64,000 nucleotides of DNA, from positions 3,532 through 67,531 of the forward strand of contig JBBDXN010000144.1 of NCBI GenBank assembly GCA_040902305.1. Direction: 5' to 3'. Under the pieces are notes generated by a model, which was not told the DNA's origin, searched no databases, and saw nothing but the letters and a program-made list of their open reading frames with translations. The translations under genes were made by a program, and so were the position numbers. Each line of letters begins with the position of its first letter. Positions within the stretch are counted from its first letter, which is position 1. Source of the stretch: Candidatus Rokuibacteriota bacterium (GTDB lineage Bacteria; Methylomirabilota; Methylomirabilia; Rokubacteriales; CSP1-6). Positions 4,531-51,537 of this stretch are shown here, in pieces.

Positions 4531-4604
4531 TGGCTGGGGCGGGAGGGATCGAACCTCCATCTCGGGCTTCAAAGACCCGGGTCCTGCCATTGGACGACGC
4601 CCCA
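4531..4604 (-). tRNA. tRNA-Gln (anticodon UUG), CCA encoded
   Basis: Hand-folded cloverleaf on the reverse strand. Acceptor TGGGGCG/CGCCCCA. D arm GTCC-AATGGCA-GGAC. Anticodon stem CGGGT/GCCCG with loop CTTTGAA. T arm GGAGG-TTCGATC-CCTCC. Discriminator G followed by CCA. Confidence 0.88.
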
Positions 4605-47554: not shown

Positions 47555-49596
<2,042 letters not shown>

Positions 49597-49600
<4 letters not shown>

Positions 49601-49908
49601 GCGAGGAGCGCTACACGCGCGAAGTCGACGACGACACTCTGCGCCGGGAGAAGGCGCGGGCGCGCGAGCTCCGCGGGACCGCGTGGTGGCGGCGGCGCAT
49701 CGCCACCGGGCTCTGCCACTACTGCCGGCGCGCGGTCGGCGCGAAGGCGCTGACCCTTGACCACGTGATCCCGCTCGTGCGGGGCGGCCGTTCGATTCGC
49801 GCCAACCTGGTCGCCGCCTGCAAGGACTGCAACAACAAGAAGCAGTCGCTGCTCGCCTGGGAGTGGCGAGCCTACCTCGACACGCTCGACCCCTCCGCCG
49901 ACCTCTAG
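49597..49908 (+). CDS. Small HNH endonuclease
   Basis: The GTG overlaps the ABC-F stop (GTGA). CHYCRR...LTLDHVIPLVRGGRS...NLVAACKDCNNKK is an HNH/zinc-finger pattern. 103 aa. Confidence 0.8.
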
Positions 49909-50005
49909 ATACACCGCGCCGTCTGAAATTGTCCGCATTGACCGCCCGCGTCCCGCGGCGTCCAATCGCGTGAGCAGGTCATCTCAATTCCAGGAGGAGG
50001 CGGAC

Positions 50006-50308
50006 ATGAAGACGCGGTGGCTGGGCGTGCTGGTGGTGGCGATGTGGTGCCTGAGCGGCGGCGCGGTATGGGGCGACGAGAAGCCGGCCAAGGTGAAGGT
50101 GGAGGGCAAGGAAGCCAAGGTCAACATCAACGAGGCCTCGAAGACGGAGCTCATGAAGCTCGCGGGCGTGGGTGCGGGCGGCGCGCAGAAGATCATCGAG
50201 TACCGGGGCGCCCACGGGCCCTTCAAGAAGGCGCAGGATCTGGAGAAGGTCGACGGCATCGGCAAGGGCGTAATCGAGAAGAACGCGGGGCGGATCGTCG
50301 TGAAGTAA
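50006..50308 (+). CDS. ComEA-like helix-hairpin-helix DNA-binding protein, secreted
   Basis: AGGAGGAGG SD. Signal peptide MKTRWLGVLVVAMWCLSGGAVWG. VNINEASKTELMKLAGVGAGGAQKIIEYR...DLEKVDGIGKG contains two HhH motifs. Confidence 0.8.
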   Translation: MKTRWLGVLVVAMWCLSGGAVWGDEKPAKVKVEGKEAKVNINEASKTELMKLAGVGAGGAQKIIEYRGAHGPFKKAQDLEKVDGIGKGVIEKNAGRIVVK

Positions 50309-50349
50309 AAATGCTTCCCCGTTGGGTCACCCTCATGTACGATGGCCCC

Positions 50350-50694
50350 GAAATCGGTCGGAGCGCACACAGGCTCCTTTGAGCGTTCCGTTTCGGCAAT
50401 TTCGCCGGACGCAACGTGACCGAGCCTCGCGCCGGGAGTCGGCGTCCGGAGCGAGGTGAGCGGGTCCTGGGCCCCAGGTCGGGCCGCGCCGAGAAAGGGA
50501 GGTGATCCAGCCGATGTGTACCCCTACGGTGATCTGTGAGGTGGTCGCCTCCTAAGGCCCGGATGTAGCAGTTGCAGGTGGCCCTGGAGGACCCAGGAAC
50601 CACCGGCCCCGACGGACCCGCTCTTCACCAGCGGGGCGGCCCGGCAGCGAGAAGCACAGCACTGCCGCCGCAAAGTCCGTCGGGGCTCTTTTTT
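50350..50694 (+). ncRNA. Candidate structured RNA (or comEA 3' UTR) ending in an intrinsic terminator; it contains an anti-16S-3'-end segment and a 13-codon mini-ORF
   Basis: The 5' end is uncertain. 50494-50513 AAAGGGAGGTGATCCAGCCG. Mini-ORF at 50514-50555. Hairpin at 50577-50604. Closing stem 50607-17/50675-85 followed by CTCTTTTTT. No match to RNA families I can recognise by eye. Confidence 0.3.
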
Positions 50695-50703
50695 CGATTC
50701 GGC

Positions 50704-50741
50704 GAGAAAGAAAACGGCCCGCCGGGTTTCCGACGGGCCGT
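50704..50741 (-). terminator. Intrinsic terminator of csp copy 1
   Basis: The minus strand reads ACGGCCCG-(12-nt loop)-CGGGCCGT followed by TTTCTTTCTC. Confidence 0.65.
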
Positions 50742-50758
50742 CAAGTGGTCGGCGACGC

Positions 50759-50962
50759 TTACGCCGACTTCCGAACGTTGGAAGCCTGAAGCCCCTTGGG
50801 CCCCTTCGTCACCTCGAACTCGACCTTGTCGCCCTCGGCCAAGCTCTTGAAGCCCTGGGCCTGGATGGCGCTGTAGTGGACGAAGACATCCTCGCCGCCC
50901 TCGACCTGGATGAAGCCGTAGCCCTTCGCGTCGTTGAACCACTTGACCGTGCCCTGTGCCAT
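50759..50962 (-). CDS. cspA: Cold-shock protein CspA family, copy 1
   Basis: [33 protein letters not shown] with RNP1 KGYGFI and RNP2 VFVHY. 67 aa. The upstream part of the listed ORF is the leader, not coding. Confidence 0.95.
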
Positions 50963-51053: not shown

Positions 51054-51091
51054 AAAAAAAGCGCCGTGGAGGACCGAGGTCCTCACGGCGC
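51054..51091 (-). promoter_or_regulatory. Terminator-like hairpin plus U-tract inside the csp copy 1 leader (candidate attenuator)
   Basis: The minus strand reads GCGCCGTGAGGACC-TCG-GTCCTCCACGGCGC followed by TTTTTTT. It lies ~95 nt upstream of the ATG at 50962 and downstream of the candidate promoter. Confidence 0.5.
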
Positions 51092-51256: not shown

Positions 51257-51457
51257 CTAGACCTTGCGGACGTTCGCGGCCTGGAGGCCCTTCGGGCCCC
51301 GGGTGACCTCGAACTCGACCTTGTCGCCCTCGGCCAGGCTCTTGAAGCCCTGGGCCTGAATGGCGCTGAAATGCACGAACACGTCCTCGCCATCCTCCTG
51401 AGAGATGAAGCCGTACCCCTTCGCGTCGTTGAACCACTTCACGTTGCCCTGAGCCAT
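51257..51457 (-). CDS. Cold-shock protein CspA family, copy 2
   Basis: [41 protein letters not shown]. 66 aa from ATG 51457. Confidence 0.95.
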
Positions 51458-51537
51458 CAACTGACCTCTTTCGTAAGGCGTCTAGCGCCTCGGTGATTCC
51501 CCGTCACCATGACGGGGGCGCCCTCCAGGAGTGGAGG

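Follow-up and report, generated by a model that had tools for sequence, protein, structure and literature searches.

Why should an intergenic gap without a gene carry a sequence antisense to the 3′-end of 16S ribosomal RNA (rRNA)? The question is raised by the 450 bp that separate a ComEA-like gene from the first of two csp genes (genes for cold-shock-domain proteins) in the window, i.e. the whole 64,000-nt stretch of contig JBBDXN010000144.1 from a Candidatus Rokuibacteriota bacterium that was analysed. An initial annotation had listed in this gap two segments complementary to 16S rRNA (AAAGGGAGGTGATCCAGCCG, 50494-50513, and CCCCTACGG, 50521-50529), a short open reading frame (mini-ORF), a hairpin and a terminator, and all the sequence features it listed were found where it had placed them. 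It had caught the presence of a structured RNA, but missed the promoter, a 140-nt 5′ domain and the kinship to the Rfam family RF02471. Comparison with relatives showed the gap to contain a conserved block, located at 50337-50694 of the + strand, made up of a sigma-70-type promoter, an RNA of ∼345 nt and an intrinsic terminator; judged from its sequence, the element is a stand-alone RNA gene (features are collected in Table 1). The RNA is composed of three parts: a covarying 5′ domain, a Shine-Dalgarno site (SD1) with the mini-ORF and a second, internal Shine-Dalgarno (SD)-like box (SD2), and a 3′ domain with the terminator. The reading developed below, to which we give slightly better than an even chance, is that this RNA is a translated riboregulator remodelled by its own translation; its conserved core would then be a translation module, and not a gene kept for its peptide.

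The edges of the block are sharp. In 96 relatives, conservation began abruptly at 50337 and ended at 50694, at the U-tract of the terminator. The -10 segment (50337-50343) showed 85–93% identity among these relatives, and the sequence upstream of it was not conserved. In each subgroup of relatives, a putative -35 hexamer, assigned from the sequence, aligned 17 nt ahead of the -10. A simple promoter scan with a strict cut-off found no promoter at the region. Since the promoter marks the upstream edge of the block, the RNA is predicted to extend from about 50350 to 50694, with an implied transcription start at ∼50350-50351. In family members from Actinomycetota and Acidobacteriota, a TAnnnT box followed by ACAC lies ∼10 nt ahead of the SD site; the closeness of this box to the SD site in these phyla indicates that the 140-nt 5′ domain is a lineage-specific addition.

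The core of the antisense stretch, SD1, is the longest possible match to the 3′-tail of 16S rRNA, in line with the initial annotation, which had noted far more complementarity than a normal SD has; the tail sequence used for this comparison is taken to be the established one, and is not this organism's own 16S. The 16-mer GGAGGTGATCCAGCCG occurred exactly only once in the window, and shuffled sequences gave 0.19 matches at up to two mismatches; with the block conserved at over 230 related loci, a chance origin is excluded. The sequence GGAGGTGRTCC, with purines before it, was conserved throughout the family, and its A and G variants both pair with a U of 16S rRNA (A-U or G-U). The extra G (AAAGGGAGG) was restricted to the subclade of the window, other members having AAAGGAGG or AATAGGAGG. 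The supposed continuation of the complementarity into helix 45 is, in contrast to the SD1 core, a coincidence. The helix-45-like segment varied in the deeper branches of the family (TGATGG, TAAGG, CCCCGG) and was absent from the members found in Actinomycetota and Acidobacteriota; only two of the seven bases between it and the tail match agree with 16S, and CCCTACGG forms codons 4-6 of the mini-ORF. The same matches had been offered as a sign that the locus is a decayed fragment of a 16S 3′-end lying on the minus strand, 21 of 22 positions agreeing with the reverse complement of the 16S end and an 8-mer matching helix 45 following. However, no small-subunit (SSU) rRNA model was found at E ≤ 10, and no rRNA gene was among the Rfam matches at curated thresholds in the 64-kb window. 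Similarity stops abruptly on both sides of the 21/22-nt match and the isolated 8-mer, with no flanks resembling an rRNA operon; the 8-mer is not conserved, and the block of promoter, ORF and terminator, conserved as a gene would be, recurs at non-rRNA loci in four phyla. The chance that the locus is an rRNA relic is therefore close to nil, and this reading is effectively excluded. As a caution for annotation, intergenic matches that look like 16S 3′-ends may in fact mark small genes with an extended SD site.

What family the RNA belongs to was approached through Rfam. No match was obtained in the region at curated thresholds. A permissive search of 651 nt indicated resemblance to a single family, RF02471 (Ms_IGR-5, 'Actinobacteria sRNA', sRNA standing for small RNA), with 21.8 bits and E = 0.0074; this falls short of the gathering score of 45 bits, and the whole model (1-184) aligned to 50488-50691. 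The comparison with Rfam that had been proposed at the outset thus yielded a sub-threshold relative, and no SSU rRNA model. Scores against RF02471 were 57–176 bits for members in Actinomycetota, 43–52 in Blastocatellia, 33 in Terriglobia, 25–37 for Rokubacteria-type members and 21.8 for the window, and the match of every relative spanned the full model. The RF02471 consensus also starts with GGAAGGAGGUGGUCC and holds GUGAGGUGG. A junction of CACC and GGCCCCGA, where a box meets the terminator, is common to the window and RF02471 and lies outside both of the search patterns described below. The order of elements is the same in both: GGAGGUGRUCC at the 5′ side, a hairpin with the start codon, GUGAGGUGG, the CACC box and a GC-rich terminator beginning with GGCCCCGA. 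Both are stand-alone intergenic transcription units, that of the window being predicted from sequence. The window differs by its additional structured 5′ domain of 140 nt, by a CCUCC predicted to mask SD1 and by the motifs of a pseudoknot, which are GGUGA/UCACC in the window and GGAY/RUCC in actinobacterial members. The RNA of the window is thus very probably a distant, divergent and 5′-extended relative of Ms_IGR-5.

Two scans delimited the family. A scan with one genome per species and the pattern GGAGGTGRTCC-N15-40-GTGAGGTGG produced at least 120 loci; removal of seven chance matches in coding DNA left at least 113 which, with the window copy, made 114 members. They were mostly from Actinomycetota, with at least 11 from Acidobacteriota, at least two from Candidatus Rokubacteria and at least one from a metagenome-assembled genome (MAG) of Thermodesulfobacteriota. 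The closest to the window among the matches listed were two Candidatus Rokubacteria MAGs (L082 and L116), which points to a host that is not actinobacterial. A metagenome scan with the window-type motif TGTGAGGTGGTNNCCTCCTA gave at least 120 further loci that, together with the window and three loci of the genome scan, made 123 Rokubacteria-type members. Conservation in relatives, which the initial annotation had named as a way to check its claims, therefore covers Actinomycetota, Acidobacteriota, Rokubacteria and Thermodesulfobacteriota, with more than 230 related loci in all. A scan of viral_contigs returned three matches, all in coding sequence and without the features of the family, and a phage-borne element was rejected since no family member was among them.

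Ms_IGR-5 was reportedly first described in Mycobacterium smegmatis by Li et al. in 2013. In Streptomyces lividans and S. avermitilis it is recorded among the expressed sRNAs and its ends have been mapped (PMC8079986, PMC8780764), and ribosome-protected reads have been found on it in M. abscessus and M. smegmatis (PMC4974804). The M. smegmatis IGR-5 (ncMSMEG15794c) is a 179-nt transcript; its fold change at 5 h of cold is given as 1.84 in Table S4 of PMC10454040, on an unstated scale that is presumably log2. The rise falls again by 24 h (PMC10454040), an observation that is intriguing beside csp neighbours and may be coincidental. In the literature searched, Ms_IGR-5 or its Rfam accession was named in annotation taken from Rfam or in a remark on Ribo-seq data, and no published function was found. 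Neither the mini-ORF nor its peptide was mentioned in the papers of this search, and the peptide and the core DNA and RNA strings gave nothing relevant. The peptide was also absent from an M. tuberculosis small-proteome supplement.

The role of SD1 as the SD site of the mini-ORF, already suggested in the initial annotation, was borne out by conservation of the frame across phyla. An in-frame start codon (ATG, GTG or TTG) was present in 152 of 153 distinct cores, as against 41 and 17 for the other two frames. It lies ∼10–12 nt after GGAGG, and the ORF is 11–17 codons long. Further, the first in-frame stop was located exactly 15 nt after the GAG of SD2 in 152 of the 153 cores, while the first stops of the other frames were scattered. 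Among the matches listed, the ORF was kept in all 114 members of the genome-scan set (window included) and in all 123 Rokubacteria-type members. The search pattern of the genome scan did not specify the stop, for which TAG (90), TGA (15) and TAA (9) were used. SD2 itself is present by construction, being part of the search patterns; its distance to the stop and its pairing with the CACC box were not forced. With the stop codon in the ribosomal A site, the last sense codon would occupy the P site, and the GAGGUGG of SD2 would end 5 nt before the P-site codon. A gap of 5 nt is the optimal SD spacing. We consider it probable that the mini-ORF is actually translated. As to codon usage, TTG was the mini-ORF start in 55 of the 114 members, with ATG in 43 and GTG in 16 (among the matches listed, loci L003-L121 and the window). 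Such a share of TTG starts is unusually high for these phyla. The stop of actinobacterial members was mostly TAG; the commonest stop in high-GC genomes is TGA.

If the ORF is translated, its product might be what matters, the 13-residue peptide being the functional product of a micro-protein gene and the RNA structure only tuning its expression. A strong SD, a conserved ORF and a promoter and terminator of its own would suit such a gene. However, the only constant part of the peptide is Glu-Val, which is imposed by the GAGGUG box itself. NGU (Arg, Cys, Ser or Gly) occupies the position ahead of GAG; the remaining positions differ radically, as in MYSNRTREVAVS, MIDLWTCEVAAR, MSILSDSSHRPSEVAEA and the MCTPTVICEVVAS of the window. 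The last codons of the ORF change along with their RNA partners; purifying selection on amino acids was not seen, the C-terminal codons following the RNA partner and not the residues. No partner genes are conserved. A micro-protein is hence very unlikely. As far as the aligned sequences tell, the ORF is conserved as a frame and not as a peptide.

The partners with which the ORF covaries lie in the 3′ domain. In Actinomycetota and Acidobacteriota, GGUGGCUGNN (the GGUGG of SD2 and the next 5 nt) pairs with an NNCAGYCACC box located directly 5′ of the terminator. Ten contiguous base pairs were found in 59 of 113 scored loci, i.e. in 52% of loci with their own sequence, compared with 6% when partners were swapped. 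The compensatory pairs included CTGTC/GACAG, CTGCT/AGCAG, CTGCG/CGCAG, CTACG/CGTAG, CTTCC/GGAAG, CGGCG/CGCCG and CTCGC/GCGAG; in Acidobacteria the SD2:CACC helix was kept with one bulge. Because its GUCACC resembles the AUCACC of 16S rRNA, the CACC box would in effect be an internal anti-SD mimic that holds SD2. In Actinomycetota, a second pairing connects a segment of the ORF located two bases ahead of GUGAGG with the loop that caps the inner hairpin of the terminator. Where the segment read GGAC, the loop read GUCC in 52 of 68 cases and never AUCC; where it read GGAU, the loop was AUCC in 12 of 14 cases and never GUCC. An alternative pairing of the GGAY segment involves the RUCC of SD1 (G-C in 66 cases, A-U in 11 and non-Watson-Crick in seven), so that the segment has two mutually exclusive partners, the terminator loop and SD1. 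In the window, the position equivalent to this covarying pairing is occupied by GGUGA:UCACC, and the counterpart of the actinobacterial CAGUCACC box is a CCACC box. The latter also forms a local hairpin with GGUGG, a partner lost in some subgroups of relatives, while CCACC is invariant. Alternative pairings thus exist for SD2, CCACC and SD1; the terminator stem itself takes part in none. As for the 9–10 nt directly 5′ of the CACC box, they read GGCGAAUCC in Actinomycetota and GGCCAAUCCC in Acidobacteria (L003-L121), and the equivalent place in Rokubacteria-type RNAs is taken by GGAGGAUCC, GGAGGACCC or GGGAGUCC (50587-50594 in the window).

These pairings could also belong to a purely non-coding base-pairing sRNA in which the SD-like and anti-SD-like boxes are structural or act as seeds, the C-rich boxes being directed at the SDs of mRNAs, and the ORF is never translated. 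Its nucleotides rather than its amino acids are conserved, and the 3′ half of the ORF is a helix strand with compensatory changes, both as such an sRNA would have it; CCACC, UCACC and CCUCC moreover resemble the SD-targeting seeds of other sRNAs. What pairing alone leaves unexplained is that ATG, GTG or TTG stands in frame in 152 of 153 cores (41 and 17 for the other two frames), and that any one of three stops appears at exactly +15 despite ORF lengths of 11–17 codons. The ribosome footprints seen on family members are a further point against it. A non-coding role of this kind is judged unlikely.

A consensus structure was tested on 66 non-redundant relatives. As RNAalifold yielded a sparse structure from the complete MAFFT alignment, refolding was carried out with RIBOSUM scoring. 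In the structure tested, 89.5% of the cells held a standard pair. Pairs changed on both sides numbered 48, compared with 36.4 ± 2.5 in shuffled alignments, none of 500 of which reached 48; the covariation score was 0.228, compared with 0.135 in shuffles and 0.05–0.075 when partners were slid by one to three columns. The support is located in the 5′ domain (helices 1-7) and in the branched terminator (helices 13-15, with 15 double-sided changed pairs and 90–99% pairing). In the terminator, 50605-50617 pairs with 50675-50687 to form the outer stem; the other parts are an inner hairpin with UCACC in its loop (50625-50629), a further hairpin that is variable, and a U-tract reaching 50694. The earlier proposal of a structured + strand RNA ending in a terminator is therefore supported both by covariation and by a match in a terminator scan. 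No tmRNA-like or tRNA-like gene was detected here by ARAGORN (0 genes), nor was there an Rfam match to transfer-messenger RNA (tmRNA).

The 5′ domain consists of covarying stems with conserved loops and junctions. Searches against Rfam families and known riboswitch aptamer models gave nothing relevant at E ≤ 10. It would be a lineage-specific sensor that gates access to SD1, and 50351-50493 is thus a candidate for a new sensor domain. Four loci (L002, L155, L180 and L193, the Thermodesulfobacteriota MAG included) had the same core at the same distance from the promoter and a 5′ domain of different sequence, which suggests the 5′ extension to be a swappable module.

Taken as a riboregulator that is operated by translation, the RNA would work as follows. 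It would be produced constitutively from its own promoter as a stand-alone transcript, and its full-length SD1 would dock the 3′-tail of 16S rRNA with the start codon at a fixed distance. In the resting RNA, the 3′ half of the ORF would be paired to the 3′ domain: SD2 and the codons that follow it would be held by the CACC box, and the ORF segment further upstream by the loop of the terminator domain. In the lineage of the window, SD1 would also be masked by the CCUCC contributed by the last two codons. A ribosome would translate the 11–17 codons, whose sequence is not conserved, and halt at the fixed stop, where SD2 would be optimally placed, at 5 nt, to pair again with the anti-SD. As the ORF pairs with the 3′ domain, each passage of a ribosome would have to melt and reset the fold, i.e. 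the SD2:CACC helix and the pseudoknot would open transiently and form again. The conformation of the RNA (the exposure of anti-SD-like boxes, its stability or both) would in this way be coupled to the availability of ribosomes; the boxes exposed could be CACC and CCUCC. The SD1-masking CCUCC and the covarying 5′ domain of the window lineage resemble an added expression platform and sensor. Refolding driven by translation is, in our estimate, fairly probable.

The same docking site could instead serve to titrate ribosomes. The 14-nt SD would then capture the 16S tail and hold 30S subunits or 70S ribosomes, as in hibernation, buffering or shielding of the anti-SD, and the mini-ORF would only free the ribosomes trapped. 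That SD1 pairs along the entire 16S tail and that its A/G variation keeps the pairing are in line with titration, as are the ribosome-protected reads on family members (PMC4974804) and the increase of the M. smegmatis member in cold acclimation, when growth is arrested (PMC10454040). A single-copy gene would, however, need very high expression for this purpose; the precise start, stop and SD2 spacing and the pairing of the ORF with the 3′ domain exceed what a sponge needs, and in the window SD1 is self-masked. Titration is accordingly thought improbable.

Several points weigh against the reading of the RNA as a translation-remodelled riboregulator. The masking of SD1 is itself one of them: in the single-sequence ensemble of the window, SD1 was unpaired with a probability of 0.001, and opening 50494-50530 would cost ∼18 kcal/mol. 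SD1 is thus predicted to be almost fully sequestered, and translation may be rare or conditional. (For actinobacterial members, single-sequence accessibility of SD1 gave noisy values, the median probability of being unpaired being 0.39, and was not relied on.) The helix formed by SD1 and CCUCC, helix 8 of the consensus, was 99% paired yet invariant, and lacks covariation support for that reason; indeed, SD1:CCUCC, SD2:ACCACC and GGUGA:UCACC were all invariant in the clade of the window, with zero covariation. The motifs used for the scans were drawn from this element, so that SD1 and SD2, and in the metagenome set also CCUCC and the TA of the stop, are present by construction. As the window lies below the Rfam threshold, its kinship rests on the continuum of scores and on the shared architecture. 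Finally, the RNA, its translation and its fold in this organism are predictions, and the physiological role of the family is conjectural.

The position of the RNA next to csp genes had led to the suggestion of a leader-peptide attenuator, with read-through producing a transcript antisense to both csp genes. Attenuators classically have a mini-ORF with a terminator after it, as here, and a csp gene was convergent downstream in 50 of 86 loci of the window's clade. On the other hand, among the matches listed no cold-shock-domain protein was encoded within 2.5 kb of the RNA at any of the 113 genome-scan loci. Family-wide, the downstream gene was of no fixed kind and was convergent in 72 of 97 loci; there are no conserved regulatory codons, and the csp gene has a strong terminator of its own facing the element. 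The shared synteny (ABC-F/HNH/ComEA/RNA/csp/MreB) was limited to one Rokubacteria-like clade with ABC-F identities of 62–86%, and at such identities shared ancestry would suffice to explain it. All-against-all clustering of flanking ORFs showed clade-specific neighbours only, with many spurious high-GC ORFs. The csp attenuator is thus very improbable, and can be regarded as effectively excluded like the 16S relic. Two broader candidates were also rejected, namely a functional link to csp, because the csp neighbour is confined to one Rokubacteria-like clade, and a 5′ leader of the downstream gene, since 72 of 97 downstream genes are convergent. The likeness to attenuators and regulatory upstream ORFs (the trp and erm leaders and the E. 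coli TopAI upstream ORF, PMC12121999) is that translating a very short ORF, and not its product, remodels the RNA near a terminator, as is proposed here. The difference is that the present element has no co-directional downstream gene and no conserved sensing codons, and is an independent gene across phyla.

Other known systems share part of this design. In SD-sequestering or pseudoknot translational operators, of which that of E. coli rpsO/S15 is an example, the SD and start region lie in a helix or pseudoknot that competes with the 30S subunit, and SD1 of the window is likewise predicted to pair with an internal anti-SD; such operators control in cis a real protein gene with a known effector, whereas here the ORF product is not conserved. 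The recoding sites of prfB and dnaX carry internal SD-like stimulators, so that an SD-like box within an ORF keeps a constant, short spacing to a codon that decides the outcome; in the present RNA that codon is the stop. Unlike them, the present RNA has no conserved slippery sequence or alternative frame, and its box is also a strand of an RNA helix. A short ORF within a highly structured, stable RNA is found in tmRNA and in the dual-function sRNAs SgrS/SgrT and RNAIII/hld, a likeness that extends here to an ORF embedded in a structured, pseudoknotted RNA. No tmRNA was detected here, however, and initiation would take place at a normal SD and start codon; in contrast to SgrS/SgrT and RNAIII/hld, the peptide is not conserved.

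As regards the neighbourhood, the order PNPOx-like gene, ABC-F ATPase, HNH endonuclease, ComEA-like gene, RNA, convergent csp and MreB (47555-50308 in the window and loci L122-L162) was kept in many soil-metagenome contigs and was gone in deeper relatives. ABC-F proteins are ribosome-associated factors; the linkage of the ABC-F gene to the RNA looks like shared ancestry rather than function. The HNH gene appears to start with GTG at 49597, according to the gene call on an identical contig (L001), and to share 4 nt (GTGA, 49597-49600) with the end of the ABC-F gene, whose stop is TGA; this suggests that the two genes are translationally coupled. The second csp gene lies in tandem with the first (51257-51460, - strand), and the upstream regions of the pair reach ∼51130 and ∼51600. 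Both have a long 5′ untranslated region and a strong terminator each (e.g. 51059-51090). The cspA thermoregulator model RF01766 matched the 3′ part of the first csp gene and its terminator with 36 bits, the threshold being 78. A tRNA gene (4534-4604, - strand) was the sole Rfam match at curated thresholds in the whole window.

Table 1. Coordinates of the RNA element, its parts and its flanking genes, in positions of the window.
Feature	Position	Strand	Remarks
ComEA-like helix-hairpin-helix gene	50006-50308	+	Upstream neighbour
Intergenic gap, 450 bp	50309-50758		Between the ComEA-like gene and the first csp gene
Putative -35, TTCCCC	50315-50320	+	TTTGGC, TTGGAC or TAGACA in relatives; preceded by an A/T-rich stretch
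-10, TACGAT	50338-50343	+	TAGGAT, TACGAT or TATGAT in relatives
Predicted RNA, whole, ∼345 nt	50350-50694	+	Sharp block edges; covariation-supported structure
5′ domain, ∼140 nt	50351-50493	+	Rokubacteria-type lineage only; helices 1-7, with 31 double-sided changed pairs
5′ domain, closing helix	50354-50359 with 50418-50423	+	
5′ domain, hairpin	50360-50377	+	Conserved loop ACACAG
5′ domain, hairpin	50383-50417	+	
5′ domain, hairpin	50424-50457	+	Conserved GGGAGUCGGCG
5′ domain, helix adjoining the SD site	50467-50472 with 50488-50493	+	
SD1, AAAGGGAGGUGAUCC	50494-50508	+	Complement of the whole single-stranded 16S 3′-tail GGAUCACCUCCUUU, bar one extra G
Mini-ORF, ATG to TAA, 13 codons	50514-50555	+	Peptide MCTPTVICEVVAS; frame conservation
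Candidate pseudoknot, 5′ strand GGUGA (in the ORF)	50528-50532	+	Partner loop UCACC, 50625-50629; motifs at least 90% conserved
SD2, GUGAGGUGG, internal SD-like box	50536-50544	+	5 nt upstream of the last sense codon
Predicted SD1-masking helix, 3′ strand UGGUCGCCUCCU	50542-50553	+	Anti-SD CCUCC at 50548-50552; pairs with 50497-50509
Hairpin GGUGG-C-CCUGG/CCAGG-AA-CCACC	50577-50604	+	ACCACC (50599-50604) can instead pair with GGUGGU of SD2 (50541-50546); both boxes more than 90% conserved
Branched intrinsic terminator, CCCCGACGGAC/GTCCGTCGGGG, then CTCTTTTTT	50605-50694	+	Match in terminator scan
csp gene, convergent downstream neighbour	50759-50962	-	Own terminator at 50742-50713 of the - strand

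The range of the Ms_IGR-5 family, an orphan present in Rfam for more than 10 years, extends to Acidobacteriota, Rokubacteria and Thermodesulfobacteriota. Its invariant core consists of a maximal SD, a mini-ORF conserved in frame and free in sequence, an SD-like box within the ORF and a fixed stop, and the ORF is woven into the tertiary fold of the RNA through covarying helices. It is a tentative and rather unlikely, although possible, extension of these results that Ms_IGR-5-type RNAs are ancient ribosome-operated riboregulators of at least four phyla, in which the ribosome toggles a pseudoknot, and that the Rokubacteria-type members are riboswitches whose output is a non-coding ORF. If this were true, the RNA would read out, and perhaps feed back on, the availability of ribosomes by means of a docking site, a disposable mini-ORF and a mimic of the 16S tail, and the Rokubacteria-type module would have gained an undescribed aptamer-like 5′ domain together with an SD-masking CCUCC. 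In this way the orphan family gains a set of sharp hypotheses, for which M. smegmatis or Streptomyces could serve as test organisms, and the arrangement may represent a general bacterial route to couple the conformation of an RNA to the activity of the ribosome.

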